DNA of 64,000 nucleotides from Lytechinus pictus (taxonomy: Eukaryota), in contig NC_087252.1 in NCBI RefSeq assembly GCF_037042905.1, positions 2,048,001 through 2,112,000 on the forward strand, given 5' to 3'. Made by a program: the position numbers and the translations under genes. The notes below the pieces were generated by a model that did not search any database, was not told the origin of the DNA, and saw only the letters and a program-made list of their open reading frames with translations. Position 1 is the first letter of the stretch; each line of letters begins with the position of its first letter. Shown here piece after piece: positions 4,860 through 62,898 of this stretch.

Positions 4860-5188
4860 TCATCTGATCATACGATAGGTATTATACATGAATGAAACGA
4901 TTGAATTACCACATCCAATTAATACAGCTATGTCCTTGTATCCAATCTTGGAAAGCTCTTCACTTAATTTCTTCCTATCTCCTTTGATGAAGTCATGAAG
5001 TTTTATTAATACAGCAGTAGTTCCCTTAGTGAGATGGTCAGGTGCGTACTGGACTCTGTATTTTGTTAACGTCTCATCAGGAATTTCAAGAGCCTTCGCT
5101 AACGGATACACATCTTCGAGGAGTAGGCGGAAGGCAATGTCAAGTAATTCGCATAGCCCTACGTTGTCCGACCTCGAGGTGAGCAGAT
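4860..5188 (-). CDS. Gene A death domain 7 (most canonical); probably the last or penultimate coding exon
   Basis: ttttatctatag|DLLTSRSDNVGLCELLDIAFRLLLEDVYPLAKALEIPDETLTKYRVQY...VLIKL...KLSEELSKIGYKDIAVLI. Ends at a donor at 4910 or reads to the stop at 4860. Confidence 0.75.
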
Positions 5189-8100
5189 CTATAGATAAAA
5201 CAGAAAATTATGAACAAGAATCTAAGCCAAGTGGCGTTGTAAAGTAAACTTCATGTTTGGCATGTTTGGTTGTGAGTAAAGTTAGGTTTATGACAAAACG
5301 CAATTCGACGCCTAAAACGTGTTTTTTTTCTTTCAATACTTTTCAGGATAGTTTTGTTCTGTGTGATATTAGTAGCAAACTAAACTGAAAGGGTGATAAA
5401 CGAACTTTCCCTCAATGGAAGACCTAATAATACATACCATTATCCTGCAAACTACTATATCCTACTCGGCACCATAGTAGTATGTATGGTCAAGATAGAC
5501 CACATGTCAATCACATGTGATTGACAGGTGTCAATCACAATAGTGAATAGGCTAATCTCCTACTTGATTAATCCCCAACTGGTAATGAATAAGACAAATC
5601 CTCTATTGTAATGAATAGGGTAATCTCCTCCTTGATTAAACCCCCAACTTGGTAATGAATAGGACAAATCCTCTATTGTAGTGAATAGTATAATCTCCTA
5701 CTTGATTAAACCCCAACTTGGTAATGAATAAGACAAATCCTCTATTGTAATGAATAGGGTAATCTCCTCCTTGATTAAACCCCCAACTTGGTAATGAATA
5801 AGACAAATCCTCTATTGTAATGAATAGGGTAATCTCCTACTTGTTACTGAATAGGACAAGTAATGAATGGGGTAATTATCCTCATCCCAAATGAATAGGG
5901 CCATCTCCTCCTCAATGAATGGGACAATCTCCTACCTAATGTTGATATCAGTGAGGTCAAAAGCGGAGAGTCGTTGTGGGGATGAACATAATTAATTTTT
6001 AAATTTATGTTAGACAAAGCGGTCAAGTTGGACATGGAGATTTTTTGTAATGTGTGGAGAGTAGGGATTGATGATGGGACAATAGAATTAGGGTAGTGAG
6101 TTGGTCAAGTTCACTCTTTTGAGTGGGGATTTTGGATACAGGCAGATGTTTGCCAATCAGCTCATCTGTGTGTGTGTGGGTTTATGGATGCAGATTTTGG
6201 ATGCAGGTAGATGTTTGCCAAGCAGCTCATCTTTGTGGGGTCTTGGATGCCGACAGGTGTTTGCCGTTTGCCAAGTAGCCTCATCTTTGTTAGGTTTTGG
6301 ATAAAGCTATTAAAAGCCAAGTAGTTTTCAAGACATCTGCAAGAAGCCATATTGTAATTGGATAATTATGAATTAACGGTGACCTCGTGAAACACTTGGT
6401 TAAGGTGACCATAGGGATGCATCATTGATTAGTGACCCTCGATGGTCATGAAGTTAGAGTGGAATAGTATTATTGGTTACACAGTGAACCTAATTTCAGG
6501 GGGGTCGCTTACAATTTAACATGACTGTTTCCACGGTTTCATGCAGGATAGCTGTCACCCAATCGGTATGTCTCATTCCGCCATTTTGGCGTTGCAACGT
6601 CTACGGCGAAACATCAGCATCGTCATGATTGTGGAGTTGTGGGGGGCGTAATAAGAGAGTTTAGCTAGAATCCACTTCATTCCCTCACATTATTCCAGCA
6701 GTGTGGCGTTGCGGCGTCTAACGGCGTCATGGGGTTGCGGTATAGGAGGATCGCAATTTACCATTTGGCAATGAGTTCGACGATGTTTGGTGATTAATAA
6801 TGTCAAATGTCGGTCCCAATTATAAATCATCATTTCTCATAGATGCATGTCTGTAAAAACTTATCACACGCACACTCTACATGTAGAACAGAAACACACA
6901 CTCTCTATTTATCGGATAGTGGGGGTTAACACTTCTTCCAATTGTTGTCACATGACCCTCCGTTTATTTTCAAAATCTTCAACCTCGAGAAAACAAATAA
7001 TTATTCAGATCGAGTGTCAATTCAAAGAGCAGGAATGTATCAATGTTGTCGATAGACTCGGGGCACTTTATCATTTGGAATACTTTTTTATTCAATTTTG
7101 TACTTCCCGAGATCGAAGTTGAGAATATCTCATTTTTATGGGAAATATATTTACAGAGGGCAATAAATCGGATCAAATCGTCAAAGTTTATGTTTGCAAG
7201 GATTTTATCAAATAAAACAACAAAAACTTTCACTCTTATGTCTAAGGAAAATTATTTATATTATCATTGTTATAAACACAAACCTCAGTATGACACGATT
7301 TTTCAAGTGTCATGTTTGCTGCGCCAATGCAGTGCAAATAACAGCAAGATTAACACAATGTAGACAGAGAGTATGAATGAACTATGACACTTCATGAAGT
7401 AGATATTCAGACAATCTATTTCATTGAAAGAATTGTATTGCCAACAGATGGTTCGCAATTGATGAGCTATTGTATTCATTATTTGGATAATGTGGCCGAT
7501 AGAGGGCGTGCTATATCATTTCAGATTTAATTAGTTTGGAAACTGTACTTTCAGAGAACTTTAGAATATTTCCTTGACAGTAAAATATAATTCCAGATAG
7601 AATTAAGGCGCTCAGTCGCATCGGCAAATCTGTAAATTTCATACAGCGCGTCCCTAAAAAATGTCCCTCTGACATAAGGCTGAATTAATTTAAAATATGG
7701 AAATTATTCTCGAGTAAAATAATGTATAATTATAGGAAGCTCATCTCAAGTCCTCACTTCTCAAACAATTTCATTGGTCTTGCTTCAGCGGTTTTGAATA
7801 TACAGTAATTATGTAACAATGGTGCTTTTCAGCCTATTCCAAGTTTTCATACATGCATCAAGTTAGATTATGATCATGATATAAGCTTTCTACTCCTGTA
7901 CATTATTTTGATTGAATGAGAGTACTACAACACTTTGGAATAACTTCAGCTTGGCTATGTCAGAGGGACATTTTTGGGGGGGACGTGCTGTATGTAGGTC
8001 TACATTCGTAGACATGGTAGAGGTGACATGATTGAAAACACTTCATTGCGGCGTACATTGCTCTGTTTTGACGGCGTTACGGCGGCGTACGGTGGCGCTA

Positions 8101-11100
8101 CGGCGCATCTAACGGCAATGAACATTGCGCCATGGCGTCATAGTTTGACAATACTCACCATGTAATATAAAGTGGCGATGCAATTGTTGCACTATCATTT
8201 GCAAGCTTAACATCTTCAAGTCAACATGAATACTCTCTCAAACCGATTTGCTTGTTCCCTATGCGATAAGACGTATAGTCGCAGGTTTGACGTGAAGAGG
8301 CACGAACAAACTGCGCATCGAGAAATGGAAACGGATGAGGAACCGAATGAAACTAAATCTGAGAATGAAGACTCCAGTGATAATGAAAATATCATAGAGG
8401 AAGATTCTAAAATGATAGAATCAGAAAGTGAAGAAGAAGACAATGGAGATCCTGAAGACAACCTAGTTTATCAAGAATGGTTCAAACTGGCTCTAGCAGC
8501 AACCGATGAGATGAGAAATGAAAAATACGAAAAATATATCTCACGGGGTATGGATGAGGAAGAAGCTCGAGAGAATGCTCACACAAAAGTTTTATGGGCA
8601 GTCAAACGAATCTTCTTCGACCACTACTCTTACTTCTTGCGACATAGCTTGTATCTTGAAGAAGATGACAGCAATCTTGACATTCTATCTGATATCAAAG
8701 AAAGAGTAGAGAATGGAATGGATATTCGGAAAGCAATACAACGCGTGTTGGCCAGACACGGAACAAAGTTTGATGTCCTATTTCAATACCAGGAAGAAGA
8801 GGAGTATGAAGAAGAGATGGAAGGGATTGAAGAAAGTGACAACTAGTGCACATAATAATACAGAACAAACTTTGTAGATTGTAGAAAGCTGAACATGTAT
8901 TATGATCATGATGAAATGATATTTTTGTCCATGCTGATAAGTTCCAAGAGAGTGACCACATATAATATATGAATGTACTTTTTGATACCTACAAATTAAA
9001 AATATGCATTGCTTGTTAATATATTGTTTCATACTGCAATTAAAATAACAAAATTTGCTGATGTGAAATATATTTTTGCATAAGATGTGTTTTTTCCTTC
9101 TCTTGTGCTTTGTCGTTGGACGGATTGATGCGATTAAACGCTTTCTATCAACAAAAATAAAAATTGAATTCATGACTTTGCCGTTAGTTGCGCCGTAGCG
9201 CCACCGTACGCCGTCAAAACAGAGCAATGTACGCCGCAATGAAGTGTTTTCAATCATGTCACCTCTACCATGTCTACGAATGTAGACCTACATACAGCAC
9301 GTCCCCCCCAAAAATGTCCCTCTGACATAGCCAAGCTGAAGTTATTCCAAAGTGTTGTAGTACTCTCATTCAATCAAAATAATGTACAGGAGTAGAAAGC
9401 TTATATCATGATCATAATCTAACTTGATGCATGTATGAAAACTTGGAATAGGCTGAAAAGCACCATTGTTACATAATTACTGTATATTCAAAACCGCTGA
9501 AGCAAGACCAATGAAATTGTTTGAGAAGTGAGGACTTGAGATGAGCTTCCTATAATTATACATTATTTTACTCGAGAATAATTTCCATATTTTAAATTAA
9601 TTCAGCCTTATGTCAGAGGGACATTTTTTAGGGACGCGCTGTATGAAATTTACAGATTTGCCGATGCGACTGAGCGCCTTAATTCTATCTGGAATTATAT
9701 TTTACTGTCAAGGAAATATTCTAAAGTTCTCTGAAAGTACAGTTTCCAAACTAATTAAATCTGAAATGATATAGCACGCCCTCTATCGGCCACATTATCC
9801 AAATAATGAATACAATAGCTCATCAATTGCGAACCATCTGTTGGCAATACAATTCTTTCAATGAAATAGATTGTCTGAATATCTACTTCATGAAGTGTCA
9901 TAGTTCATTCATACTCTCTGTCTACATTGTGTTAATCTTGCTGTTATTTGCACTGCATTGGCGCAGCAAACATGACACTTGAAAAATCGTGTCATACTGA
10001 GGTTTGTGTTTATAACAATGATAATATAAATAATTTTCCTTAGACATAAGAGTGAAAGTTTTTGTTGTTTTATTTGATAAAATCCTTGCAAACATAAACT
10101 TTGACGATTTGATCCGATTTATTGCCCTCTGTAAATATATTTCCCATAAAAATGAGATATTCTCAACTTCGATCTCGGGAAGTACAAAATTGAATAAAAA
10201 AGTATTCCAAATGATAAAGTGCCCCGAGTCTATCGACAACATTGATACATTCCTGCTCTTTGAATTGACACTCGATCTGAATAATTATTTGTTTTCTCGA
10301 GGTTGAAGATTTTGAAAATAAACGGAGGGTCATGTGACAACAATTGGAAGAAGTGTTAACCCCCACTATCCGATAAATAGAGAGTGTGTGTTTCTGTTCT
10401 ACATGTAGAGTGTGCGTGTGATAAGTTTTTACAGACATGCATCTATGAGAAATGATGATTTATAATTGGGACCGACATTTGACATTATTAATCACCAAAC
10501 ATCGTCGAACTCATTGCCAAATGGTAAATTGCGATCCTCCTATACCGCAACCCCATGACGCCGTTAGACGCCGCAACGCCACACTGCTGGAATAATGTGA
10601 GGGAATGAAGTGGATTCTAGCTAAACTCTCTTATTACGCCCCCCACAACTCCACAATCATGACGATGCTGATGTTTCGCCGTAGACGTTGCAACGCCAAA
10701 ATGGCGGAATGAGACATACCGATTGGGTGACAGCTATCCTGCATGAAACCGTGGAAACAGTCATGTTAAATTGTAAGCGACCCCCCTGAAATTAGGTTCA
10801 CTGTGTAACCAATAATACTATTCCACTCTAACTTCATGACCATCGAGGGTCACTAATCAATGATGCATCCCTATGGTCACCTTAACCAAGTGTTTCACGA
10901 GGTCACCGTTAATTCATAATTATCCAATTACAATATGGCTTCTTGCAGATGTCTTGAAAACTACTTGGCTTTTAATAGCTTTATCCAAAACCTAACAAAG
11001 ATGAGGCTACTTGGCAAACGGCAAACACCTGTCGGCATCCAAGACCCCACAAAGATGAGCTGCTTGGCAAACATCTACCTGCATCCAAAATCTGCATCCA

Positions 11101-14100
11101 TAAACCCACACACACACAGATGAGCTGATTGGCAAACATCTGCCTGTATCCAAAATCCCCACTCAAAAGAGTGAACTTGACCAACTCACTACCCTAATTC
11201 TATTGTCCCATCATCAATCCCTACTCTCCACACATTACAAAAAATCTCCATGTCCAACTTGACCGCTTTGTCTAACATAAATTTAAAAATTAATTATGTT
11301 CATCCCCACAACGACTCTCCGCTTTTGACCTCACTGATATCAACATTAGGTAGGAGATTGTCCCATTCATTGAGGAGGAGATGGCCCTATTCATTTGGGA
11401 TGAGGATAATTACCCCATTCATTACTTGTCCTATTCAGTAACAAGTAGGAGATTACCCTATTCATTACAATAGAGGATTTGTCTTATTCATTACCAAGTT
11501 GGGGGTTTAATCAAGGAGGAGATTACCCTATTCATTACAATAGAGGATTTGTCTTATTCATTACCAAGTTGGGGTTTAATCAAGTAGGAGATTATACTAT
11601 TCACTACAATAGAGGATTTGTCCTATTCATTACCAAGTTGGGGGTTTAATCAAGGAGGAGATTACCCTATTCATTACAATAGAGGATTTGTCTTATTCAT
11701 TACCAGTTGGGGATTAATCAAGTAGGAGATTAGCCTATTCACTATTGTGATTGACACCTGTCAATCACATGTGATTGACATGTGGTCTATCTTGACCATA
11801 CATACTACTCACCATAAATTACAGATGGGATTCAAACAGCCTCGAAATATGCATTAAGATGTGTTAATGCGCAACTATTCTGCCTTTCCTTCGTTGTCCA
11901 TAGATCCAACCCAATGTAAACCATGTACACTGGAAATTTTTTTGGTGTTAACTGTTTTTAAGTTTCGGCCTTCAAAGCAACAATTTAGATACTTTCAGAT
12001 GTATGAATAATGTCTAACAGCAAAATGAACAAACTTTCTACACGCAAATGCATGGAAACAAGATCCTGCTAAAACCAAGACGTCATAATTATTTGGCATG
12101 TTTAGAGCGTTTTCGAGTGAAATTTTTGTATTTTGTAGCATTCCAAATTAACTTCCAGAAAGTGTGTAGGCCTTTTTTCTATAATGTCTTCGACCCGTTT
12201 CCGCGGAAAAAGTGGTTAAAAAACTAATGACATGAATAAAGCAAGAATATTTTGACCAAATCCTAATATACTACTTGTACTACTCCAAAAGTTAAGTAGT
12301 ATACATGTCCAATCAGAGTATATTTACCCATAACTTTTGCGGATTTCAGCTTTTCACGGAGTTTATTCTCAAAGTTCTCTTCCGGATGCTCCGTCATCCA
12401 ACCCCGAGCATACGCTCCTATCACATCCGCACAATGAACACCTTCTTGATCTTCTCCGAATGTTCGTTTGATTTTGTCATGCTTATATGTGGGAAGGCAG
12501 GCAGCGATTCTAAGAACTTCGTAATTGATGGAGTCACTGAGCAGAATATCCGGAGTCTTAACGGTGTTAACTGGGGATTAATGTGAATTGAAGTTATCTA
12601 TTAGGACATTATTGGCATTTGTCAATATTCTTGGTCGAAACACAAAAAGTAGCACAAAGCAAATATACAATTTGAGGAACATTAGTAAATGAACAAAAAC
12701 ATATTAACAGTATTTCATGAAATCTTAAGTTTTCTTTCATTAAATTAGACATGAATAATAGAAAAGAGGGTCAAACATGGAGGGGAAAAAGAGAGATAAA
12801 AAGAGAGTGTGTAAGTTAGAGGGGGGGGGGGGGGGTGTGGCGAAGGATGATGAACAGAGTGATATGAAGAAAATAGACGAAAAAAAAATATCGTCAGTCA
12901 TTACCTGAATACCTAATGTAAAACACAATGTGATAGCCATATAAAGTGTTCAAATGCAAAAAAAAAAATAATGATAACAAATAACGCGTTGCATTTTATT
13001 GTTAAGTAAAATAATAAATAAGCCCTAAACAAATAGTCTATGAGGAGGGGATGGCGGATGACAAAACCGATGAGTGGACATTTCCAAATTATGTGGTCAC
13101 TCCAAATTACAGAATATTTGTAAATAAACGTGTTTAATAGGTGTAAATAATGCCATACCATCATTCATTCTCTGTGATGTTATCAAATAAAGGATGTTAA
13201 GGGGTTCCAGTAAACGAAAGACAAAGAAATTAAATAAAACAATATGAAATCTAATTTCACTGTGACATACCGTAGGGAACGAATCCTTAAAAGTTGCTTT
13301 CAATATGAATGTAATTTGCCTTTATTTCATCCTCAATTAGAAATATACATAATACAATATATAAGAAACTATTAACAAGTAAAAATGAAATTGAATATGG
13401 ATAGCGGATTGCATAAAGCCACAAGGCATTGTATAGATGAAGTCCCCCACAAATAGACACATGGTAGATGAGAAGCGCTTAATAAATGTAACTATTAGTA
13501 TTATTGTTATTAATATTATGATGATGATGATGATAAAGAAAGGATAAGATAAAACATAAAACAAGATATATAAATAGAAACAAAAATTAATGTACAAATC
13601 AGGCTTCACTAATTCAGTATGGGATAGAAAAAAACCTCCGGGTTATACATTAGGACGCAAATGATGAAGAAATAGTGGACATTTATCAAGGAAACGGTCA
13701 CCCCCTTATAAAAATCGCCAATGGTATTTGAATGGTGGCGAATGGTAGTTGAATGGTGATCTGAATGGTAAATGGTACGCGAATGGTATTTCAGTGGTGT
13801 TTCAATGGTAAGTTCTTAATGGTAAGTGGTAGTTTATGGTAGCTGAATGGTGATCTGAATGGTAAATGGTACGCGAATGGTATTTAAGTGGTGTTTCAAT
13901 GGTAAGTTCTTAATGGTAATTGGTAGTTTATTTAATGGTAAATGGTATACCATATACCCAATGGTGTCTCAGTGGTATGTGTCTAATGGTATGATTGGTA
14001 TGATGAATGGTATACCATACCCAATGGTGTCTCAGTGGTATACAATGGTGTCTCAGTAGTATGTGCCTCTAATGGTATGATTGGTATGATGAATGGTATA

Positions 14101-46102: not shown

Positions 46103-46184
46103 ATGGAGGATCGAAAAGGAAGACTGGAACTGTCTCTTTGTGTGTGCTGTATTTTGTCAGTATGTGTCACATCTGGAATATCAG
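46103..46184 (+). CDS. Gene B exon 1, signal peptide
   Basis: aaaATGG; MEDRKGRLELSLCVCCILSVCVTSGIS G|GTAAAT. Confidence 0.8.
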
Positions 46185-49100
46185 GTAAATTTTAAACGAC
46201 CTTGAATTAATACAGAATGTCTTAATAAACGCCCTGATTTTGGGCATTGATTGCTAGCTTAGTCTTAATGCAAGTGAACACGATCGACGAAAAATGTCGC
46301 GGAAGGTGGTATGTTTACAACACATGCATGCTGAAGGAAAGCAATATATTGCTTTATTTCTTTGTTTTAGATATGGTTTGTGAAGGTTGAATGCAAAACG
46401 AGAGAATGAAATGAACAAGTGAAATCGTAAGGTGTGGTATGGACAAATGTGGCGTCATGCTATGATGACATTGTCACCATATTATCTTGACTATCAGTGC
46501 TACTATTGTTTTCTTTTTATAATAGCTTGAAAAGCATATTTTATTCAACATGTGGGAATTCATTAAAAATGATATGAATGTTCAGTAAAGTTTCATCTTG
46601 ACGCAAAATTTACTCGTTGTTATCGTTTGATGAGCAGTATAATATTATCAAACTTCTTTCTACTCACATGTTTATCACTCTGTTTATGGATAGTTATCTA
46701 AAAACCATGGTAGGTTGGCATGGTTGAGGATTCCATGTCAAGACACTAAAGCAGAAAAAATAGATTGTGGTATTTTTCTAAATCGCTTGATAAAAAAAAG
46801 ATCACAAGTTCCTGAAATTACCACATCGTCCAGACAAATAACCGAGGGGTCTATGAGAGCTGCTTCCCTTATTCATTCTAAGAAATATATTTTCCGACTT
46901 TTTATTTCTTCCTTATTCAAGAGGAGTGTTTTCATCCCTCTTCAAGGTTCCTACATGTACTACCCATCGGTTCCTTATGTTATTATTACTTGCCTTCAAC
47001 CATTCTCACTCATTTCAAAATTCTTATTAATATGTCTTTTTTTGTATTTAGGGGTCGCTGGAGAGATCAAAGATGGAATTGTTTTAACAGACCTACACAA
47101 GACAGTTCAGAGAGGAAACGACGTCGTGCTAAACTGTGAATTTTACAAAGAACCTGTTGCCGTCTATTGGAAGAAAGGGGATGACCCTGAGGGTGGAGTT
47201 AACGTTGTAACGTGGGTGGACGGAAGAGAGTTCTCTGGATACTGCATGAACAATGAGAGATGTGGGATTGGAACTACAAACTACTCACTGATCATCAGAG
47301 ACGCCCAGATAGCAGACCGAGGTCGATACATATGCCGGGTTTCGAACTACCTTGGTATCCTGATTCACAACGTCACAGATTTAAAGATCTATGGTGAGAA
47401 ATTGCAAAGAAGTAATTCCCTCGCATTTGAGAGAAACAACGCACTGAATTTACTGTTACGAATAAGCCATAGTTCCAAATTCTCTGATGTTTTTAAGCAA
47501 TCTTTATGTTTTCGCAATAATCTGAAAGGTTTTTGCTTTAAAGATGTTGTTTAGTTAGTAGTCAAGGTAATTGTGTGGGTCATAATTTGGCTACTTTTCA
47601 AGTAGCATGATAATAACTAAATATTTTATACACTGTAATCCGTAACTAAAATATTATAGGCCTGCACAAGTGTATATTAATAATGAAATTGTTTACAAAT
47701 GCATATTATGTTAAAACAGATTCTTGGTCTTGAAAGTTTGTCTCGTACAAGTACTTGTGCAAATAACTGTAGGGAACTAGTTTGTACATTATCCAAGTTT
47801 ATTGCAGCCTGAGTTCACAGAGTTCTTTAACCCCTCTCTCATTTTCAGGCCCTTGCTCTACTCCAAAATAACCCTAATTTAATTTCCCCTTTTCTTCAGT
47901 CTCCATCAGCATTCTTGCCTTTTATCCTCATGTATCTTTGTTATCCCCATCTCCTTTGTTATCCTCATCCATCCTTCATCCCTTGCACCCCACACTTGAT
48001 AATTTATTTATCTCTTGGTCCTCTCAGCTATGTTACTCCCCTCCTCTCTCTTGGTTGATTGAATCATGAATATTTATGTTGTAAGACTCCTTATGTGTGA
48101 TTGGTTCTTATTCATGATGATGCATTACTTCTGTTATTGTCATCCTCCAATTTAATTTGAATATGTATTGAAATCTAGTACCTTGTACAAAGAAAGCCTA
48201 GAGAGGAAATGAATAATAAATTATGCCCTGCCAAGCTAAGGCAGTTGAGCACAGACCTTTAAACCAACAGCATCTACCTCTTCATCTGTTCTTGTTCTGT
48301 GTTGGAAGAACCCGCGTATACTTAGAGCTAATAAAATATAAAATACAGCTCCTACAACTGGTGGCAGCGGTACTCCAACTCAACAGACAAGTTTTGCAGA
48401 CAGAATTATTCTTCGAGCAAGAAATTGTGAATCTCCCTTCTTCGAGGAAAGCTAGTAAAGCTAAGCAAAGCATCCTTCTTCTAGTGTTTCGCCCTTCTTC
48501 TTGATCAGCTTGGCAAGCCTTAGATATAATTCTCCCTTCATCTTCTTCGGTGAGCAATTTCTCAAACCTAGGTCGATAGTCTGCATCTTCATTCAACACC
48601 CTCCTTCAAATTAGGTATGTCGATATTAGATGATACATGTTATAGCCCTTTTTTTGTGCTCATTGATACAGCAAATTTTAAATTGCATGTCTGCAGGTTT
48701 GTGCCAGCCTGTTTCATTTTGCAGTTTCCTATACATTACTTCATATAGAAGGTAGCTACACCCTACTTCATTTTGCAGTTAGTTGTATTACAGTTACATA
48801 AGCTATCTGCTTAAATTTGTCAGCTGTATCTGCACGATATGAATCAGCTTACCTCATTTTTTTTCAACATGGTTGCTGTGTATTAGACAATTCTCCCTAC
48901 ATCTTGAGATATTTATAGCTACATTAACCTATCACTGTTTTGAATACTATAATTAATTCATAGCAGTCAGAACATTGTGCTCATTTGCAATGTGAACGTT
49001 TAGAATGGATTTACCCGAGATTTTCTCTGGTGAAGAGGGTAAAGACTTTCACCAGTGGATAAAACGTTTTGAACTGGCAACTGAATTTATCCCTAATGCT

Positions 49101-52100
49101 TTTGATCAAAGGCACATACTATTGCCAGCACGATTATCTGGACCAGCTTTTATCATCTGGGATGGTCTCCCTGAATCGGAGAAGAAAGACTTTGCCAAAA
49201 TCAGAGACAAACTCTCCCAAGTCTTTGGTAGAACTCAGTATATGCAGTCCTTCAGATCATGTATTACTGCAAGAAAGCGACTACGAAATGAGCCACTTGA
49301 AGTTTACGCATCAGCCATCATTACAATGGTAGGAGAAGCTTTCCCCAAAAACGACGCTGAAGCGAAAGATGGTGAAGCATTTAAGATATTTCTCGCTGAC
49401 CCAAAGCTACAAGTTAAGATTCACGAGATGGGTGGAACCACACTATCTGATGCACTGAACATTGCCCTTAGAGTAGAAAGAGCAAGCGAGCAACTTTCTC
49501 CAACAACAAACGCCACCATAGCATCAACAGAAGTAACACCTACGCAAGATATCGTCTATCTCTAAGTCCTAAAGCGATTAGATGAACTGGAAAGAAAATT
49601 TGAGGAACTGAACTTTTCACAAGATCACAGCAAGCCAAGTGATGAGCAGACTACACACACTCAGAGATTCCCAGTCCCAGAGACAACCGCCCTGCCTCAC
49701 CAAACCATCGCTCAAGATGCTCCCAACACTACACACACAGGCCATCCGATAGACAGAGTATGAGCTGGTATAGATCACCAAGCCCTATGCCATCAAAGGA
49801 TGACTACCGACATAATCACCATCATCCTCCATCTAGTTCCCAAGATAGATATTCCCGTCAGCACAGACAGGATCAACGATCTCGATCGCCAAGTCCACGA
49901 CCAGAATATCGCCGCAGATCCCCAAGTCCTCATGCCCACCCCTACCAACATCAAAGCCAAACCAATGAACATTTTCCGAATAGATATTCTCAAGGGTATG
50001 GCAATGCAAGCGACAGATATGACAACCGCCGATACTCCCCAAGAAGAGGTGACAGACAACCCCAAGAGAATGTTCGCCCTAGTCGTCATGTCCAATTTGC
50101 AGAATCAAGGCCGGAAAACTTCTACTAGTTGATGATGAGGGCCAGTCGTCAGCTGCTACGTCAACGGCCCAAACCAACAGACGCCATGATCCATCAAGTG
50201 AGCAAATACCACCCTACATCCCAATCATCTTAGAAAATACCTATGTATTAGCTTACGTAGACTGTGGTTCCTACACTTCGCTCATTAACAGTGACTTTTG
50301 GGAATCTATCCCAAAACATCATAGGAGTCCTCTCACCAAGTCAGCCATGACAGCTACTTCAGTAACGAAAAACCCCTTAGACATTCTGGGCACCGTTGAG
50401 GCATCCTTACATCTAGGGAACACCACCAGACAGCACACCTTTGTTGTCGCCAGAAACATTTCACACCAGGTCATGATTGGATTGGACTTATTTTGGAAGT
50501 ATGACGCCTCAATCTCCACGACAACCTTCATCATGCCATGAGTGAATATACCTCTTGTGAACAAGCACCAATACAAAACCCCGTTGAAGTGTAATGTGTG
50601 TCTAGTGGGAAAAGCAGCCATCCCTCCTTCATGCGAGACACATGTAAATGGAAGATTTGTATCGACACAAGCCGATGTCATCCCCACCAACTATGATGGT
50701 ATCTTTGAACCTAAATTTCAATCACATCTACAAGTTGCAAGTGCTAGAAGTCTATCTAGACCTCAGGACGGTCTCATCCTCATTCGACTCATCAACCCAT
50801 CACAAGATGCTGTCGAGATACCAGCCGACACCAATCTTGGCCAGTTTTACTCTATGACGGGTGAAATTCAAGAAGAGTACGGAATAGTAGATAGTATTGT
50901 TGCAAGTACACAAACAAGCACACAAAAACCCAAACCACCACTTAAAGTTGCATCCATGCTCCCTACTTCAGATATGACTCCAAGTCAAAGAGAGAAAGCA
51001 GAGCAACTACTCTCCAAATATGATGATGTTTTCAGTTTTCAGTTCGTCATCTGACGATATTGGCCAGACTGACTCATCCTACCATCACATCAACACAACG
51101 ACCGAGGTACCAATCCAGAAACGAGCATACCGGACCTCACCAGCCTTGCGATTGGAAATCCAGTCACAAGTAGATGATCTACTGCGCAGAAGAATAATTG
51201 AAGAAAGTCATAGCCCCTGGGCAAGCCCCATAGTAATGGTTAAGAAGAAAGACAATACGTACAGATTCTGTGTAGATTATCGTGCCTTAAACGCAGTGAC
51301 TGTAAAAGACTCACACCCGATCCAAAGGCAAGATGATTCTATTGATGCACTATCATCCTCAACCTACTTCTCTGTCATGGACTTATCTAGTGGTTACTGG
51401 CAGATTCCACTCAATCCTGATGATAAGGAGAAGACAGCATTCACAACAGGTACAGGGCTGTATCATTTCAATGTTATGCCCTCGGTCTAGTCAATGCCCC
51501 AATGACGTTCCAACGCCTGATGGAAGCAGTTCTCCACGGTCTCCACTGGTCTACTTGCTTAATTCACTTAGATGATTGCATTGTACTGGGAAAGATATTT
51601 GACGAACACCTACTCAATCTCCATAAAGTACTCCAACGCTTCAGAGAAGCTGGACTTAAACTCAAGCCATCTAAGTGTCAGTTCTTTTGTAAGGAAATTA
51701 CATACCTGGGTTACGTCATCAATGATAATGGTGTACTTCCTGACCCCAACAACATCAGCAAAGTAGCATTTTTGCCAAGACCAAAGAACCCTACCAATGT
51801 CAGATCCTTCCTTGGACTAGCCTCCTTTTATCGGCGATTCATCAAAGATTTCTCAAAGATCGCCTCTCCCTGCGAGGACAAGAGTTCACTATCTTCACAG
51901 ATCACCAACCAATCCTTGGCTTCAACAGAGTACCAATTCAAGACGATGTTTCAGGTCGTCGAGCCAGATGGATAGTTGAACTCAGTGCACACACTTTCCA
52001 AATCAAACACCGGAAAGGCCGTCAAAATAGCCATGCAGATGCCTTATCCCGACGACCACCATCCTCTGAGCAGAGCGTTAACCTGGTAGATGTACTAGAA

Positions 52101-55100
52101 GACAGCCCAAGACCAACTGAAGTAACCAACCAAGCAGAGCATACATGTAACATGGTACAGACTCGTTCAGCCTCTCGTCAAGCCATGAGTAAAGAAAGCC
52201 GGACCATTGACAAACCTATGCCTGCACCACCTAAAGTACCAACTGAAGCTGAATCTACCGACACCCCCAAAAAATTCAGTCTTTCAGGACAAGATAATGA
52301 GTTACGCCTACATCAACAACAAGACAAAGATATACAGGCAGTAGTTAGATATTTGACTGATGAGAAATACGCAAAGAAACTCCCGGTATGAGACGGTACT
52401 TATGGAACTATCATCGCCTGACCATCGTCAATGATATCCTCTATCGCCGGATACAAAATAATATTGATGAAGCTACATTCCAAGCAGTAGTACCGCACTC
52501 CATGGCCTCAACGGTTCTCAACCAACTACATGGTGATCCAGCTGCCGGACATTCTGGTACCCGAAGAACACTTCAAAGGGCCAAATCCACTTGTTAGTGG
52601 CCATTTATGCACAGAGATATTGTGAACTATTGCCAGACCTGTGCAGCATGTGAGTCGATGCGATTGCCAAATCCCAAGTACCGAGCACCTCTTCACAATA
52701 TCACCACAGAGCGTCCTCTCCAGAAAGTATTTGCCGACGTTGCAGAGCTCCCAACTTCCAGAAAAGGCTTCCAATATATACTGGTAGTTGTTGATCATTT
52801 CAGCAAGTACACAAATATCTACCCAATGAAATAGCAGACAGCACCAACCATAGCTAAACAATTCTTCGAGGACTACATCAAAGAACATGGTGTACCAGAA
52901 ATCCTCCACACAGATCAGGGAAGAAAATTTGAGTCAAGACTAATACAAAACCTATGCAAAAAACTTGGCATAAGAAATACACGATCATCTCCATATCATC
53001 TCTAAGGAGCGGGCCTAGTTGAAAGAGCCAACAGAGTAATCAAGGAACAGTTAGCCAAATACCTTGCTGACAATGGTGGAGAATGGGATGCCCATATATC
53101 CCAAATCCAACTTGCATACAACAGCAGCATCCATTCAAGTACGGGTTTGTCACCATATTACATCCTACATGGTAGAGAAGCAAGGATACCACTGAATGTA
53201 ACCTTTCCTATTCCTCCTCCGTCATACTCATCACCACAAGAGTATGTGACCAATCTGCAGAGCCGATTGAAGAAAGCATTCAATCATGCTCAACAACAAA
53301 CATCTCAAGCTCAACAAATGCAGAAAGATGACTACGATCGTAAACTACGTCTGACCAAGTACAGTACTGGAGATCTAGTATGGCTACACGATCAAGTTAA
53401 GCACAGAAACAAGCTTGAACCAAACGGAAAAGGCCCCTTTGAAATAATTTCTTCCTCACATGATGGACTAAATTACAAGATATCTGATATTCATTCACAC
53501 CACAACAGATTGAAAATGTTTCGTTCCAGAAGTTCACTCCAACGACCACTGTCTTTTACCCAATCGATAACAACTGAGACTCCATCTCTTCGACCACACA
53601 AAATCCAAACCACAGGAATCATTCAGTATAAAATAGTCACTCTCAGAGGAAGAAGCAACATCCCCACATCTCGTGTCTGACCAATCTTCATACGTCAGAT
53701 TCCAGAAAAACCTGACCAACAGCAAAGACCAGGCACATCCTCTCTTCATTCTAACCATGATGAAAACACAGCTCCGTCTAGGAAATGAATTTATATCTCA
53801 TCGACAGAGCAGAGAAATATGAATTAATATAAACTTCTTGTTGACGACATCAGGAAATTATAATTAATATTGATATGAACTCATCCTTGACAACATATAA
53901 ATTATGAACTTATTCATAGCACATGATATTCGATGAAGAAAATCTAGCCACATGGACGTTTTGAGACAAAAATTGAAATTGGAAGCACAAGAAGTGAAAT
54001 ATATATGATTTAAAAACTGATCTTCATAAACTCAATATGGACACTTAACTGCACCCAAGTGATATGAACTGATAGTCAACGTCTTCACGAGTGATATGGA
54101 CACTATTATACATATGTTTGTGATACATTACATGTTTACTGAGATTTAACATTTAATATTTTTGTATTTTTTTATAACGTTACTTTCGTGTGAATTAATA
54201 ATTGATATTTACATTTGATGCAGAAATTCCAAAAAAAAAATCAAATTGGATATTCTTTATCTTGTAAAAAACCAACATATTTTCAATTTTGACAAAGAGA
54301 CTTGACATTTTTTGAATAAATTAAATGTATATACATATATTACAAAATGGTGTAGCTCACCGATATGCGTATGCACTAATACAGAGATGCCTTTGGTCAA
54401 TACTACAAACTGATCTACCAAATTGATCAATTATTGTTAATAGTGTATTTCTTTGTCTAACAAAATGTGAAAAAGGACTCTATACTTGATACAGAGATTA
54501 GTAGTATTTAGGTCTATGATTATATTATATGACTACTCTACAAGACCTAGTGAGGAAAAAATGTGTTGTTGACCAAGTTCGAAGTAGAGTTATAAGAAAT
54601 TATATTTCTCTTGATATGTAAGATGTAATTCCAAATAGACAAATGCATTTAAAGCCCACAAAGATTTACGGAAAAGAGAAAAGACTCTATCATGTGTATA
54701 TGCTAGAGTACCAAACCGCACGAGGTGATATTTAATTTTCATATGACCACATGTAAACAATTATGTGATTGCGATATTTCAAATTATATTCATATATATT
54801 TTAACAGAGTTTCATTCACATACAAAACTCTGCTTATTTTGATAAAATTGGAACTTGTTAAAGGAGAATAGTCGTATGTTTGAGTATACATGTATGTTGT
54901 ATAAGATTATCATGGACGTTGCCTTAATGTTAAATACAAAATAAATAAAAAAAATATAATTGATTTAATATTGGAATCCCGTTTTATCATTAAAATCATT
55001 TACCTTTGATAATTTATTTGCCCACTTATTTTGTGTAATGTTTTCAAAATATGACAATCAATGGAAATGATGAAATATTAATTTCTATCATACATGTATG

Positions 55101-58100
55101 CACATATCTGAGACAGGATTTTAATATTCTTAGAAAAAGGAAGAAATTGATTGCATGATTATTTTTACTGAAATTTGTAAAAAAAAAGAGTACTATTACG
55201 GACAAGTTTGTCATGTCAACATGTTGTATTTTTGGTTGATGAAACGTTTATAAGAAAAATATACAAACAGAAAAAGAAATAAAGTTATTAGTTTGAATAG
55301 GTCCAGGCATAGAACGAGGATTTTATCATGAAATGATTTCTTGTGTACTTTATGACTTGAAGATTCTGATGGAATATTGTCATATTAATGATTTACAGAT
55401 TTGAAAAATCATTTTCTGTGTACTTTTATATTATAGTTTATACATGACCATGGTTACTTAAAATTTGTTTTGAGATCCTAAAATGAGAACATTTTATTTG
55501 GAGAAAGGAATATTATGTAGGCAACTAGTTTGTACATTATTCAAGTTTATTGCAGCCTGAGTTCACATGATTCTTTAACCCCTCTCTCATTTTCAGGCCA
55601 TTGCTCTACTCCAAAATAACCCTAATTTAATTCCCCCTTTTCTTCAGTCTTCATCAGCATTCTTGCCTTTTATCCTCATTTATCTTTGTTATCCCCATCT
55701 CCTTTGTTATCCTCATCCATCCTTCATCCCTTGCACCCCACACTTGATAATTTATTTATCTCTTGGTCCTCTCAGCTATGTTACTCCCCTCCTCTCTCTT
55801 GGTTGACTGAATCATGAATATTTATGTTGTAAGACTCCTTATGTGTGATTGGTTCTTATTCATGACGATGCGTTACTTCTGTTATTGTCATCCTCCAATT
55901 TAATTTGAATATTTATTGAAATCTAGTACCTTGCGCAAAGAAAGCCTAGAGAGGAAATGAAGAATAAATTATGCCCTGCCAAGCTAAGGCAGTTGAGCGC
56001 AGACCTTTAAACCAGCAACATCTACCTCTTCATCTGTTCTTGTTCTGTGTTGGAAGAACCCGCGTATACTTAGAGCTAATAAAATATAAAATACAGCTCC
56101 TACAATAACAAATGAGGATATTCTTTTAGTGGAAATATATTTTCAGATCCACTGTCCTACATGTACATGTCCTGCATGTCATAGCGTAGTCGTTGATGAC
56201 AGATGTGTAAAATGGGAATATCTAAAAGTCACAACATTGTGTGGTAGCATGGACCTATTTGTAATAGGTCCATGGTGGTAGAGTGTAAAGTGAGACCTTT
56301 GATATCTATAACCATCCAAACCAATGCATGAGCCATATGTTTGTTCCGTTGTAGCTCGTCCTGATGAACCTTACCCAATCATCAACGAATGCGAGACGAA
56401 TGGAGGTTCGTCTTCTGCTACTCGTACAGGAGACTGCAGGATCTCAACCAACTCCACAGTTATGAACATCACATGCTCAGCCTCCGGATTCTTCCCGGAT
56501 GTTAACCTGTTCTTCCTACATGGATCTTCAAAAGTGATTAACATCGGGAGCAATGGGTGGAAAAATGAAGACGGTTCTAAGAGCAGATCTATAACAATCA
56601 ACGCAAGGGTTAGCGACAAACAATACGTGTGCGTTGCGTCAGACATACCTGGTTCCACAGAGGAGAAAACGGCGGGGGTATATATTGAGAGTTATTTTTC
56701 TTCTCCAAAAAAATCAGACAATGCATCACGTTCATTCGAGAAGACAACTGCCAATCCAAATGAAGCTGAGATGAGGAGTGGCACAAATCCTGCAAAGATC
56801 GGTAAGTTAACTTAATATATCTTTGTTAAGGAGACGTTCGATTCGATCGATGGACTTCACGCATTGACCTACAACTTAAGATAACATTTTACCATCAACA
56901 TAAACAATGCTCTCACAATCTCTAAATGGATGTTGATCGAACTATGACTGTCTCTTTCAAGCTTTAATAAACATTGCCAGTAAAAATACAATTTGATTGT
57001 CAATTAAAAACCCAATTTAATTCATAAAAAAATTTGAGTGGCCGTCATAATTTCCATTGCACTGATTCAAAAAAAAAAGTTTGGCCGTTGTAACAGGGGC
57101 GTCAAAATTTTTTCATGATTGATCAAACAAAGAACAGGGGGTGGGGGTAAGTCATTGTTAACTCACAACAGATCACTCCTCCTAAATGTCCTACGTTTTG
57201 TCTCATTCCATGCATTCCATATGTTTTATAGGAACAACACTTAATATTAACGAATACAAAAGACCCTCGCCTCGCTCTATCCACCTTTTAATCTAAGACT
57301 CTGTGATTTACTGTTTGGAATGATCTAGATCTAAAGTGTCGCCGATTATGTATCTACACACACTTAGATTGTCTGACTATGAAGTCAAGTTGCACAAAAA
57401 AGTAATAATGTCTGAATTTTTTTCTTTCCAGTTGTACCAATATTAATGATACTGTTTGTCGCCACGGCAAGCGTGGTATTCTTGTGGCGGAGATCAAGGA
57501 AACGGCTGGCCAGAAGTCACATAGGTAAGCACTACCATTCCTTCCGCGATCGATGTAATCTCGATTATCATTACCACAATCTTTAAGTAGTCACTACTGG
57601 TATACGGATTGGGTGGGGGATTCTTGCTTCCAAAGAGCTGCACAACCTAGGGGGGGGGGGGGTGAAAAGTAAGGACAAGGATGGGAAAAGGGTTAATATG
57701 ATTCAATATGTTTAATACAGTGCGTATCAAAAAAGTTTAAACTTAGAAAAAATCCTGTAAAATTGTACATTTGTAAAATCCTGAAGATTTTCCCATGTTT
57801 TAACATTGGTATATATCCATTTAAGCAAATGACGATAGAACTGTCGAAAAGTATTTCCGCTTGAGTGAGCACCACTTACTTTTGAAAAGTTAGTGAAAAA
57901 TTATTTGCGAAGAACTTTGAAATAGTTATGCGAATAATAGTAGACCTTAATCATGAAGAACACGTTGAATTTAGCTAGTAAAATTGATCTGAAGATATAT
58001 TTTACCTATTTAACTTGTTTCCCTGCCAAAAACACTTCGAAGAGTGCATTGCGCCCCATCCCACTCCCCCAAACACCGAGGCCATCGTGACGATATTTAC

Positions 58101-61100
58101 TTTACACTGAGCTGTGATTTACATGAAAATGGCTTAGGCTTGATTTTCATTTTGTTAATCATTGTCAAGCTTGAAAAAGAGTGGAGAAACAGGTATTAAA
58201 TGAAAGATGAACTGTAAACCCACTTTAAATGCTAAAAACTTAGTGAAAAAATGCTGGAGATGTCTGATATAAACTTTTGTTCAGATTTAGTTCTGTCCTC
58301 AGATCCAGCTGGCACAAAAAAGGGTAAATGTTGTGCTTACTAAGTGTTGAAATTTCAATTTGGGTGGCAAAATTGTTACAAAATGCTTGGATGTACCCAT
58401 GTATTACAGTTGACAAAAAGTGCAATGGGAAATGTATGAGAAATGTTTCGCAGGGTAAACTTGATTTCGCCCTTTCCTTTGACACAGCGTGAAAACGAGC
58501 ATTTCTAGGCAAACAGATTTTTGCGAGCTTTACAAAAATGGACAGTGCTCACTCAAGTGTAACATTCTGTCAATACTTTTACTTTCATTGGATAGCTGAG
58601 ACCCAAACCCAAGGTTATATGTGAAAAATTACCCATATGTCGTATATTTTTTAATTCCCAGGGCTTTTTCAAAGTGTAAGCCTTTTTTTGATACGCATTG
58701 TATAGTGCCCAAATTTATGTCAGAATTTCATTTCCATATAAAAGAGCCAAAAATTTCGCTTTCGAGTTTTGAAGAAAATCCCCGAATCCATTAAACAGCG
58801 TGTCGTGATACTAAAAATCAATAAATCATCGGGGGGGGGGGGCACAACCGGCCGGACCCCCTCCCTTGAGAGCCATAATTGAAATTTGTAATGTAAATAC
58901 CGTTTTTTCCTCGAGTGTGCCCCCTTTTGAAAGTGAGGATGCCTTTATTTTTCTTGTCAAATTTTCATCGGAAAATGTGCCCCCTTTTGGGGAAAATTCT
59001 GGATCCGCCCCTGCATCACCGTGATAGTTTGGCTTTAAACTGACGGACTAGAATCTCAAAATTTGAAATACCGCACCGTGAAAACGGTATGTGATATCTG
59101 AAAAGGATTCCTTTCATTCATTAGAATTTAAAGACCAGCGGATCGTTTGTAGCAGTCATAATATATCAATTCGACATTTTTTCACTGTAGGTAAACGTGA
59201 TGTCGAGGAGTCAGAGTTATTGATGCAAAAAGTAAAGGTACAAGGTAAGTGTTGCACGAAAACACATTGGCTTAGCATTGAATATTATAGGGAAGGAATT
59301 GTCTTAATCCTGATTCCTCATCACCATGTGTGATTATTATCCAAATTTGACACCTAGATAGATCTTTGTAATTTGATTGGTTGTTTGATATCGTTCAATC
59401 AGCCCATTTTGAAATGAGGTTATCAACCGTGCAATTTTGGATCCATTCATCGTGCAATTTTGGATCCATACGATTTTGTACATTACACGCGCGCACCGAG
59501 ACTGCTTGCAGCTAGGCACCATCAGTTCGCATGTTTTAATGACGTAACAATGAACAGACCAAACTCGCACTGCATGAGCATGATTAACATCGAAATTTAT
59601 AAATTTCATATGAAAAAAAAATAATGTTTTAGGTGTCATATAAACCAAATAATATTTTTTTTTATCCGTGCAATGGACAGAATACTTCATTCAGTGAGAG
59701 ATGAAATAATGATCCATTCAACTCGGCTACACCTCGTTGAATGCATCATTTCATATTTCACCTTATGAAGTATTCTGTCCATTGCACTCATAAACATTCA
59801 TTATTTGTATAATATGGCACCACGCCGACGCGCTTGGTGTAAAACAAAGAACGGAATCAAATGATAGTATAATGTCAAGAGGAAATAACTTAAAATCGAA
59901 AAAAAAGGGTATTAAATTCACCAATATGTAGCTTAATGGGGATATATCTGTGAAAGCGTCCAAAAACACCACAATACTTCTTTATTAAGAGTTCCGCAAT
60001 GTCCTAAGGAACTAAAATGCATGTACTGTCTTAATTGATAGGGAATTATTGATAAAACTCAAGCGCAGTATAAATCATAGCAAGTTAATGTTTTGAACTA
60101 ATATTTTACAATTTTTTCATGTACAGGGGTTGTCTCGTTTTATGAACTGTGGCTACTGGCTTATGACACTCCGAATGATGAGATGGCAAAGGTATATACT
60201 GCTCTTGTTAAGCTGGGTATTAAGAATGTCAAGGGACAGATGGATAAAGGACTTGTGTATGATGCTCTTTGTAAATGGAAAGAGAGATCATATGCACGTG
60301 ACCAACCACAGATGTTAAGAGATGCCTTAGAGGAAGTGGGCCTTGAAACTAGATGGCAAGAGATTTACGGTATGTATTTTGATATCTTCCATTAAAAATT
60401 AACAACATTCTTATTTTCAAACAACTCGCCCTTTATCATGCGGTTTTACACCATTGCCTACATGGGTTTTCACAATAATGTTACCTTAAGTTCGTCACAA
60501 TTTCTATGTTTTACCATTTAGCAGCATTATATTGGCTACAGCACATGTTCCATCATTAATTATTTCCTACATTATTCATTGATTATTTCTCACAATGCAG
60601 ACCACGTACGGCAAGGCAATGATGTTACCAAAGTACCTGAAGGAACACTCGAACAAATCCTGCTTGACTTGAAAGGCAAAAGTTCAATAAAAAAGTTCCT
60701 GAATAATTTGTTACAACGTGAAAGTAAAGGTTTACAAAATGAGATAATCGTTGTCGCCCATGGCAGTGAAGAGGACAAAGGAAAGTCTGCCAGTGAAGAG
60801 GGCAACATAGCTATGGAAAACACAGCTTCCGTCAAAGAAATCAGTGACACCAATGACGGCGAAGGGAACAATAAAGTCTCAGTTCCCGTCAAAGAAGTAA
60901 GTGACACCCATGACGTTGAAGGGAACAAAGGAAACACAGTTTCCACCGAAGAAACCATTGACGGTAAAGGGAACAAGGAAGACTCAGCTCTCACCAAAGA
61001 AACCGAAGACACCCGTGACAGTAAAGGGGACAATGAAGACTCAGCTCCAGCCAAAGACACCCATGACGGTGAAAGGAACAAAGGAAACTCAGCTTCCGCA

Positions 61101-62898
61101 AAAGAAACCAATAACGGTAAAGGGAGCAAGGAAGACTCAGCTCTCACCAAAGAAACCAATAACACCCATGACAGTAAAGGGGACAATGAAGACTCAGCTC
61201 CAGCCAAAGAAACCAAAAACACCAATAGCGGTAAAGGGAGCACAGGAAACTCAGCTTCCGCAAAAGAAACCAATAACGGTAAAGGGGACAATGGAAACTC
61301 AGCTCCCACCAAAGAAACCAATAACCCCCATGGCGGTAAAGGGAACAAGGAAGACTCAGCTCTCGCCCCAAAAAACAATGACAACCATGATGGTAAAGGT
61401 AACACAGAAGCAACAGCTCCCGCCAAAAAAAACGATGACACCCATGACGGTAAATGGAGCAAGAAAGACTCGCATCCCGCCAACGTATCCAAGCAAGAAG
61501 AAGTCTTTCAGGCAATTGAAGGGGTCGAATACAGTGACGGCATGCACAAGTTGAAGGAATGGAATAATGGTCCTTTCAAACAGAATCCGTTTGTTCTAGT
61601 TAGTCTGGCACTCGAAAGAGCAGGGTATCTCCATATCTCAAAGACCTTCTTTGACGGTGAGTCTCTATCTATTTGACATATCCAATGCAACTAATACGGT
61701 TCACTTATAGTCCATAGTCCATATAATTCGGGTTTAACTTAGACCGTGGTCTAACTCTGTGCTAAAATTAATGGAAGCCAAAATGTCAGAATTTTGTTGA
61801 AATTATATCTTTCCAATGTTTACTGTATTTTTGTCCTTCTAATTCTGTAATGGAGACGACACTATCTTATTCAGCCTTCCCAGGCAGCTAAGGATGATTT
61901 GAAAGCCAAATGAGCCGATACATTGAACCTTTATCATTAGAGATTTATGCCACAATTGGCTATCCATAGTTAAACCACAACTTTAAACTAGAGTTTCATT
62001 GGAATCTGACATAAGCATACGGGCCATAATGTTCATCTGATTGGTGTGATGACTTGAGAATATGGATTTTGCAATCATGGAATTTTACGTCAATAAGCTA
62101 ATTAGTTTGTTTGCAATACTTAAAAATGACACAAAAAAAGATGATATTTTGTGATTGTGGAAAAAGGAACCCTTTTGTTAAATAAAACAAAAATACGCCA
62201 GGTTTTTCTTCATGATCTAAGTGGTTTCAGGTCTACACTAACTACAGTCTGCTTGTTTATTCCGATTTAATAAAAAGAGAAATTTGTGGTACACGATGAT
62301 TTCAGGGGAACAACATTAAATATGGTGGATTGTAGTGACTTGAAGGTTCAACAGAATAGTACGTTGTGATGATTTAAAAGTACGAATACAACCTAACTGT
62401 CAGAACAAGCCTACATAATATATCGTTTTAATAATGCATGTACTGTATAGGTCCTATTGTACATAGGCATAGGGGGTGGCTAAACAAGGTAAAATCTATC
62501 GAATTGTGCCTTGTTTGTCATATTAGACGGTGAATAAATATAAAGATTAGACACAATATATATTTCGTTACTTTGTTCATGAATGTGAATGTACAAAAGA
62601 GGCATATATATTATTAAGCACGCTCTAACACGTTTCCTTGCAGGCCCTGTATCATTTTATGAACTTAGATCATTAATGTACAACGTGAATACACCTAGCC
62701 TAGAGAAGCTAAGAAAAACAATTTGCAAGCTAGACATGCTAGAAGTCGATGCGACGAGTGCAGATAAATTCGGTCCACAACAAATCTACGACTCGCTGTG
62801 TCAGTGGAAAGAGGGACACCCTCAGGTAGATCAAGGAAAGATATTACATGATGCACTTTTAAGAGCCAGACATGAGGAAGCATGGTGGAAAATTCTAG
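46103..62898 (+). CDS. Gene B (3'-incomplete): paralogous receptor SP-IgV-IgC(C1-like)-TM-(death-fold-like)x>=3
   Basis: Exons 46103-46184, 47052-47393, 56355-56801, 57432-57524, 59191-59244, 60127-60369, 60601-61656, 62644-62898. All GT-AG, all phase 1, 857 open codons. Ends on a donor, so the gene continues past the window. Confidence 0.87.
47052..47393 (+). CDS. Gene B exon 2, V-set Ig domain
   Basis: VLNCEF...VYWKK...YSLIIRDAQIADRGRYIC. Acceptor tttag, donor G|GTGAG. Confidence 0.9.
47768..48356 (+). repeat. 5' LTR
   Basis: Direct repeat of 55516-56104. About 19 mismatches by manual count. AATAAA at 48330. Confidence 0.95.
48359..48371 (+). other. Primer binding site, complementary to the tRNA-Leu 3' end
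   Basis: TGGTGGCAGCGGT lies 2 nt after the 5' LTR and matches the ...ACCGCTGCCACCA end of animal tRNA-Leu. Confidence 0.75.
49005..50128 (+). pseudogene. gag: Gypsy gag, disrupted
   Basis: PEIFSGEEGKDFHQWIKRFE...EPLEVYAS; stop at 49563-49565; R/S/P-rich C-terminal region in a second ORF. Confidence 0.75.
50230..53540 (+). pseudogene. pol: Gypsy pol (protease, RT, partial RNase H, integrase) with stops and frameshifts
   Basis: VDCGS protease site. RT motifs SPWASPIVMVKKKD..RFCVDYRALN, DLSSGYWQI, HLDD. Integrase H..H/C..C, VVVDHFSK, HTDQG. Confidence 0.92.
55516..56104 (+). repeat. 3' LTR
   Basis: Preceded by purine tract GGAGAAAGGAA (55500-55510). Confidence 0.95.
56248..56274. mobile_element. 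27-bp minimal MITE with the same termini
   Basis: CATGGACCTATTTGTAATAGGTCCATG, flanked by direct repeat GTGGTAG. Confidence 0.6.
56355..56801 (+). CDS. Gene B exon 3, C-type (C1-like) Ig domain plus stalk
   Basis: ITCSASGFFP...WKNEDGSK...YVCVAS. Donor G|GTAAGT. Confidence 0.87.
57432..57524 (+). CDS. Gene B exon 4, transmembrane helix
   Basis: ttctttccag|VVPILMILFVATASVVFLW-RRSRKR...G|GTAAG. Confidence 0.87.
57718..58700. mobile_element. Tc1/mariner-type non-autonomous element
   Basis: TA|CAGTGCGTATCAAAAAA ... TTTTTTGATACGCATTG|TA. Confidence 0.8.
59191..59244 (+). CDS. Gene B exon 5, linker
   Basis: ttttcactgtag|GKRDVEESELLMQKVKVQ G|GTAAGT. 54 nt. Confidence 0.7.
60127..60369 (+). CDS. 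Gene B death-fold-like domain 1 (type a)
   Basis: GVVSFYELWLLAYDTP...LVKLGI...VYDALCKWK...MLRDALEEVGLETRWQ. Confidence 0.82.
60601..61656 (+). CDS. Gene B death-fold-like domain 2 (type b), interrupted by a long hydrophilic tandem repeat
   Basis: The N-terminal part (KVPEGTLEQILLDL) and C-terminal part (KEW...QNPFVLVSLALERAGYLHISKTFF) align with gene A exon 31145-31423. 352 vs 93 codons. Confidence 0.82.
62644..62898 (+). CDS. Gene B death-fold-like domain 3 (type a)
   Basis: GPVSFYELRSL...IYDSLCQWKE...QGKILHDALLRARHEEAW. Donor G|GTAAGT. Confidence 0.82.

Follow-up and report, generated by a model that had tools for sequence, protein, structure and literature searches.

How could a single receptor chain carry a whole series of death folds, and what would it use them for? 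This question is raised by a 64,000-nucleotide stretch of the 812-Mb genome of the sea urchin Lytechinus pictus (C8:2048001-2112000; hereafter the window), in which an earlier note had described a head-to-head pair of immunoglobulin (Ig) receptor genes with tandem cytoplasmic death-fold exons. Death receptors normally have one death domain (DD) each and assemble their signalling platform out of many separate chains. About ten different death folds, set in order within one receptor, would make a natural test of a platform pre-built in one chain, and of how such a platform is kept off. We analyzed the window and its flanks, 100 kb to the left and 100 kb to the right (264 kb in all). The two genes, A (minus strand) and B (plus strand), are members of an echinoid multigene receptor family with 8-11 divergent modules, assigned, some of them tentatively, to the death fold.

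Structure of the two genes

Exons were read directly from the sequence and then tabulated with splice sites, phases and joined codons (Table 1). GT follows all tabulated exons (16 in A, 8 in B), AG precedes all internal ones, and every junction is in phase 1. Joined by coordinates, A up to theta gives 1227 codons and B within the window gives 857, with 0 stops. This confirms two divergent genes with leader, IgV, IgC plus stalk, transmembrane (TM), linker and helical exons. The helical exons in the window have 81, 93, 79, 94, 88, 81 and 93 codons in A, down to position 4910, and 81, 352 and 85 codons in B. Both genes continue outside. Gene A has three further module exons past the left edge (C8:2044478-2042337; zeta, a degenerate eta and theta) and a short tail exon, and gene B runs about 26 kb past the right edge, to about C8:2137937, with beta, alpha, beta, gamma, delta-like, epsilon, zeta and eta/theta exons following alpha2. 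Once the flanks are included, A has 10 module exons and B has 10-11 (one beta is split; delta, zeta and eta/theta are weak), so the count of up to seven in the earlier note was too low. The exon-for-exon match of A and B that it described is only a loose one: B has an insert in beta1 and three alpha-beta pairs, against two in A. The insert, a polar repeat of roughly 260 residues, lies in the middle loop of beta1. A coding, polar tandem repeat with ~18-19 residues per unit occupies 60815-61492 and is much shorter in the next paralogue.

Genes A and B correspond to the RefSeq proteins XP_063959097.1 and XP_063959098.1 of L. pictus, each "uncharacterized". Both RefSeq models end by reading through the donor at or just after gamma (C8:2119969 in B) and drop ~400 residues. 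In A, the model terminates at the linker exon 25597-25683, reading past a weak donor to a stop four codons into the intron. These ends are either an annotation error or a real short isoform. The one sequencing run found has reads over introns as well as exons; it is therefore DNA and uninformative on splicing.

A sister gene at C8:2027052, 57 kb away, keeps all exons of A within 18 kb. The ratio of nonsynonymous to synonymous substitution rates (dN/dS) between A and this gene is 0.44 over ten modules (Fisher p 1.9e-9) and 0.45 over the five distal modules (p 8e-4). Module profiles match the cluster mostly at 80-130 bits, against <=15 bits on reversed open reading frames (ORFs), the profiles being partly built from these exons. 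Because the sister gene keeps every exon under a dN/dS of 0.44 and the profiles beat reversed ORFs, the genes are not products of chance. Gene A is longer than its sister because it has been stretched by intronic insertions. The dN/dS values show that selection maintains the module array. Assigning delta and epsilon to a different gene was considered and rejected: the sister gene has both in the same order, 2.8 kb and 0.7 kb apart.

Cytoplasmic modules

Eight module types make up the tail, always in the sequence (alpha-beta)n, gamma, delta, epsilon, zeta, eta, theta, and a separate phase-1 exon encodes each module. The number of alpha-beta units is 1 in the two leftmost cluster genes, 2 in A and its sister, and 3 in B and its neighbour. 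Predicted models of alpha, beta and zeta are Greek-key helical bundles superposable on DD, DED, CARD and PYD; beta1 has six helices, alpha1 and alpha2 five, and eta and theta four long ones. For gamma, delta, epsilon, eta and theta, the homology to the death fold in Pfam or profile comparison is weak. Thus the death-fold assignment of the earlier note is borne out by structure for three types. The Pfam check that it had proposed confirmed the first Ig domain and left the second weak, and only one of the ten cytoplasmic exons in the window gave any match to Death (PF00531; E 0.0025, 18.3 bits), below the cut-off of 22.6 bits, which was reached by none of the ten. Whole models score 13.4 (A) and 20.1 bits (B), and the cut-off is reached solely as a summed score, in the database models P0017, P0090 and P0162.

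Fold matches include the DDs of Fas, TNFR1 and p75, and the best single one is vFLIP, of which one DED alone aligns. Foldseek against PDB and BFVD gave no row at E<=0.001, the top BFVD row being a viral death-domain protein (E 0.05). Alignments of alpha, beta, gamma and epsilon against PDB sequences gave nothing meaningful (best E 0.025, topoisomerase II), and epsilon-theta in ESM Atlas scored 0.81-0.82, the chance level.

The predicted template-modelling score (pTM) of multi-module models is 0.74 for seven modules and 0.69 for three. Values of ~0.7 would be high for a string of independent beads and suggest that the modules pack against each other. In the models, neighbouring modules are separated by little linker and probably form a defined array within the chain, which gives some support to the idea that the array is pre-assembled. 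No fold match aligned two modules together at low root-mean-square deviation, so a tDED- or 2CARD-like geometry of the array is not supported by the comparisons made. A complex prediction of alpha1 and beta1 as separate chains, run without alignments, scored 0.01 and speaks neither for nor against binding.

No NACHT, kinase, TIR or caspase domain was found among the ORFs of >=200 residues inspected in the 264 kb, or by Pfam in seven of seven models. Without a catalytic domain in the models scanned, the tail must act by binding. A tail leading to a NACHT exon, as in the sea-cucumber receptor AjNLRC4, was rejected for the cluster; in A, theta is followed by a short tail exon that closes the gene, and no NACHT match was found in C8:1.9-2.3 Mb (56 of 357 candidates scored).

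Ectodomain and topology

Both receptors are type I single-pass proteins with a signal peptide, a V-like and a C-like Ig domain, a stalk and a TM helix, and the two Ig exons plus stalk account for the whole ectodomain. As to the proposed V plus C1-like arrangement, V-set is above its cut-off in both genes but I-set and Ig_3 score higher, and the C1 part is marginal in A (21.3 bits against a cut-off of 21) and has no match in B. No immunoreceptor tyrosine-based activation motif (ITAM) was found in seven of seven proteins scanned.

The receptor family

A search of the genome with the IgV exon gave 61 matches, 33 of them close (E<=3.4e-18) and mostly on C8, nine being in the cluster. The orientation of A and B is as noted earlier, but a functional head-to-head pair is not supported: the pair is merely where the tandem cluster flips, with four minus-strand genes to the left and five plus-strand genes to the right. 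Module searches located epsilon at 18 places, alpha at 27 and gamma at 19, and a hand tally gave ~20-25 tail-carrying loci as a lower bound. Further family clusters lie at C8:13.75-14.03 and 18.4-20.7 Mb, C10:21.36-21.43 Mb and C11:19.8 Mb; additional Ig domains or additional delta-like modules occur in some models. In the next paralogue (C8:2168831-2171938), the first alpha exon is split by a 2.9-kb insertion; this gene is probably broken, or skips that exon. Matches on a small contig (G000:C325:15223-19564) score identically to the sister gene, and this contig is probably an uncollapsed duplicate.

Full-length or partial models, all without a name, exist in S. purpuratus, L. variegatus, Diadema antillarum and D. 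setosum. Among 1.84 billion representatives searched there were 267 matches, 150 of them listed, and 55 of the 159 proteins then compared have the modules. No death-array relative outside sea urchins was found among the 28 representative proteins named, the word-index searches being saturated. In the openly accessible literature searched, which did not extend to the sea-urchin immune surveys of 2006, no account of an Ig receptor carrying a tandem array of death domains was found, in agreement with the earlier note. Rast and Hibino, both in 2006, reportedly mention V/C-type Ig genes of sea urchins; the present ectodomains may be among them. The genes are real and uncharacterised, and no named or described family was found for them. 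The family is invisible to standard annotation, as Pfam misses the tail and RefSeq truncates both genes. It spans Diadema to Lytechinus and occurs in a genetically tractable urchin, so that this gap in the echinoderm receptor repertoire is open to direct testing.

Mobile elements and repeats

In the 6.3-kb element in A, the terminal inverted repeats are 99.5% alike, and the single central ORF (8211-8843) encodes a C2H2 finger. The element is recent and absent from the sister gene. Its ends resemble a non-autonomous Polinton/Maverick. In the LTR retrotransposon of B, gag-pol is broken into several frames. A degraded LINE-like reverse transcriptase remnant lies between the two leader exons (38939-40928). 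Palindromic repeats resembling miniature inverted-repeat transposable elements are at 42642-43468, 31744-32207, 28529-29127, 19464-19887 and 59632-59821, and minisatellites at 3516-4402, 13718-14757 and 23644-24438.

Table 1. Exons of genes A and B and intronic insertions, in window positions
Feature	Position	Strand	Remark
A leader exon (signal peptide)	38227..38296	-	start of XP_063959097.1
A Ig domain 1 (V/I-set)	36596..36943	-	Pfam Ig_3 5.6e-10, V-set 2.9e-7
A Ig domain 2 (C1/C2-like) and Ser/Thr stalk	34922..35347	-	Pfam C1-set 3.4e-4, 21.3 bits
A TM exon with basic stop-transfer	33820..33927	-	read from sequence
A juxtamembrane linker exon	33203..33268	-	100% identical in sister gene
A module alpha1	32312..32554	-	death fold, five helices in model
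A module beta1	31145..31423	-	death fold
A module alpha2	29146..29382	-	death fold
A module beta2	27666..27947	-	
A module gamma (probable death fold)	27135..27398	-	B gamma Pfam Death E 0.001; gamma-zeta hhalign 77-89%
A linker exon (29 codons), between gamma and delta	25597..25683	-	overlooked in the earlier note
A module delta (short, weakest death-fold support)	12328..12570	-	
A module epsilon	4910..5188	-	dN/dS 0.23
B leader exon	46103..46184	+	XP_063959098.1
B Ig domain 1	47052..47393	+	Pfam V-set 1.6e-7; 62% to gene A
B Ig domain 2 and stalk	56355..56801	+	Pfam ig E 0.021; 41% to gene A
B TM exon	57432..57524	+	
B linker exon	59191..59244	+	
B module alpha1	60127..60369	+	45% to A alpha1
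B module beta1, split by insert	60601..61656	+	two half matches of beta profile
B module alpha2	62644..62898	+	
Insertion in A, delta-epsilon intron	5476..11809	.	2643-bp terminal inverted repeats, 6-bp target duplication
Insertion in B, Ig1-Ig2 intron: Gypsy-like long terminal repeat (LTR) retrotransposon	47768..56104	+	LTRs 96.8% alike, 5-bp target duplication

The same ectodomain with possible other effectors

Between C8:23.6 and 27.9 Mb, about 10 close IgV loci without any module match alternate with same-strand exons for a VLIG/GVIN GTPase. At the single locus retrieved (C8:25946001-25966000), IgV, IgC, TM and linker exons are followed by a large GTPase exon, frame-shifted in that copy, with no death module between. 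Several IgV-IgC-TM plus VLIG/GVIN loci were seen at C8:23.6-26.1 Mb. We infer a splice link from the Ig exons to the GTPase exon, and these loci may form a family of Ig-receptor GTPase fusions. In a tree of IgV domains, from which 5 of the 27 proteins tried were left out as they had no usable IgV, the IgV of the retrieved locus groups with a death-array receptor (support 94/98). The IgV of a database model, P0023, in which the family IgV-IgC-TM is joined to NACHT, nests in the family; this model may be a chimeric prediction. Ig-TM-GVIN and Ig-TM-NACHT proteins also exist in sea cucumbers, with distant Ig domains. A wider reading, which we put forward tentatively, is that one Ig receptor chain encodes a whole heteromeric death-domain assembly of 8-11 ordered modules (Myddosome- or PIDDosome-like), and that one clade of Ig ectodomains has been coupled by exon shuffling to a death-fold array, a VLIG GTPase and perhaps NACHT.

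Proposed function and alternatives

We favour, with a probability of roughly 55%, a recruiting Ig receptor whose clustering lets the array recruit death-domain adaptors or caspases. The Ig domains would engage a cell-surface or microbial ligand, and the receptor would cluster. Clustering would expose or multiply several different death-fold surfaces on the array, and these would recruit death-domain adaptors or death-domain caspases; such caspases are reported in sea cucumbers (PMC13673367). A single chain might thus take over the task for which death receptors oligomerise, the output being immune or cell death, and the copy number of the alpha-beta unit may tune length or valency. Three observations bear on the putative sensor and one-chain signalosome of the earlier note. 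No part is better conserved among paralogues than IgV, and its F-G region varies little, which weighs against a simple sensor. Between A and its sister, the only pair compared, IgV gave no sign of positive selection (dN/dS 0.38). Several modules appear to be without helix 3 in the predicted models. Helix 3 is used in canonical death-domain assemblies and provides surfaces for type I and III contacts; its loss would remove these surfaces, which fits a capped or inhibitory array as well.

The conserved ectodomain without positive selection and the apparent lack of helix 3 in several modules, which would block filament extension, also suit an inhibitory or decoy receptor. Its array would sequester or cap death-domain adaptors, in the manner of vFLIP, cFLIP and POPs, and damp death or inflammatory signalling upon contact of the conserved Ig domains with a self ligand. 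The absence of ITAM points the same way, as does vFLIP as the best fold match, but this match shows no function, and one DED alone aligns. Gene A has no motif resembling an immunoreceptor tyrosine-based inhibition motif, and eight distinct conserved module types seem beyond the needs of a simple sink; we regard the decoy as rather unlikely. A slightly smaller chance is given to an adhesion, gamete-recognition or guidance receptor with the array as a structural scaffold or rigid spacer. Death folds have non-death roles in ankyrin and UNC5, light chains but also Robo, LRIG1 and contactin are among the nearest solved relatives of IgV, and the F-G strands are conserved. TMDD1 has a role in fertilisation (PMC13192892), but its death domain is extracellular and single. 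Rapid copy-number turnover and tail exchange with the VLIG GTPase suit immunity better. Least probable of all is that a short form ending at gamma is the main product, with the distal modules a minor isoform, or in decay in A and B since their introns took up large insertions. The models P0001, P0002, P0012 and P0034 end at or near gamma, the gamma-to-epsilon introns are swollen (13 and 7 kb in A, about 14 kb in B), the donor of the A linker exon is weak with its stop four codons on, and eta is degenerate in A. However, the distal exons have no stops and keep the dN/dS of 0.45 given above, and the models P0005, P0006 and P0007, from three species, extend through theta.

Comparison with known receptors

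The TNFR-family death receptors (Fas, TNFR1, p75NTR) share with A and B a single-pass chain and a non-catalytic death-fold tail. Their ectodomain is cysteine-rich, whereas it is Ig here, with no TNFR match in seven of seven models; one DD is multiplied there by oligomerisation, and many different modules lie here in one chain. The netrin receptors UNC5A-D have TSP1, ZU5 and UPA domains, none of which was found here by Pfam, all A tail exons being helical modules or short linkers. UNC5 has one death domain, in contrast to 8-11 death folds in multigene clusters. The tDED of caspase-8, cFLIP and vFLIP and the 2CARD of RIG-I have two modules, against 8-11 on a membrane receptor. AjNLRC4 (Ig-TM-NACHT) is likewise an echinoderm membrane receptor with two Ig domains, and it binds microbes (PMC8699970). 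NACHT is in its tail, whereas none was found in the models P0001, P0002 and P0005-P0007, and the IgV domains of sea-cucumber Ig-NACHT proteins are ~20% alike and fall outside the family. Ig-TIR receptors of the IL-1R type have in common an Ig ectodomain, a single TM and a non-catalytic tail, but their tail is TIR, absent from seven of seven models here, and the death folds reside there in a MyD88-type adaptor and here in the receptor itself. By analogy, these receptors would work most like a death receptor of the TNFR type or UNC5, yet they do not show the defining ectodomain or tail features, and they are neither NLR nor TIR receptors.
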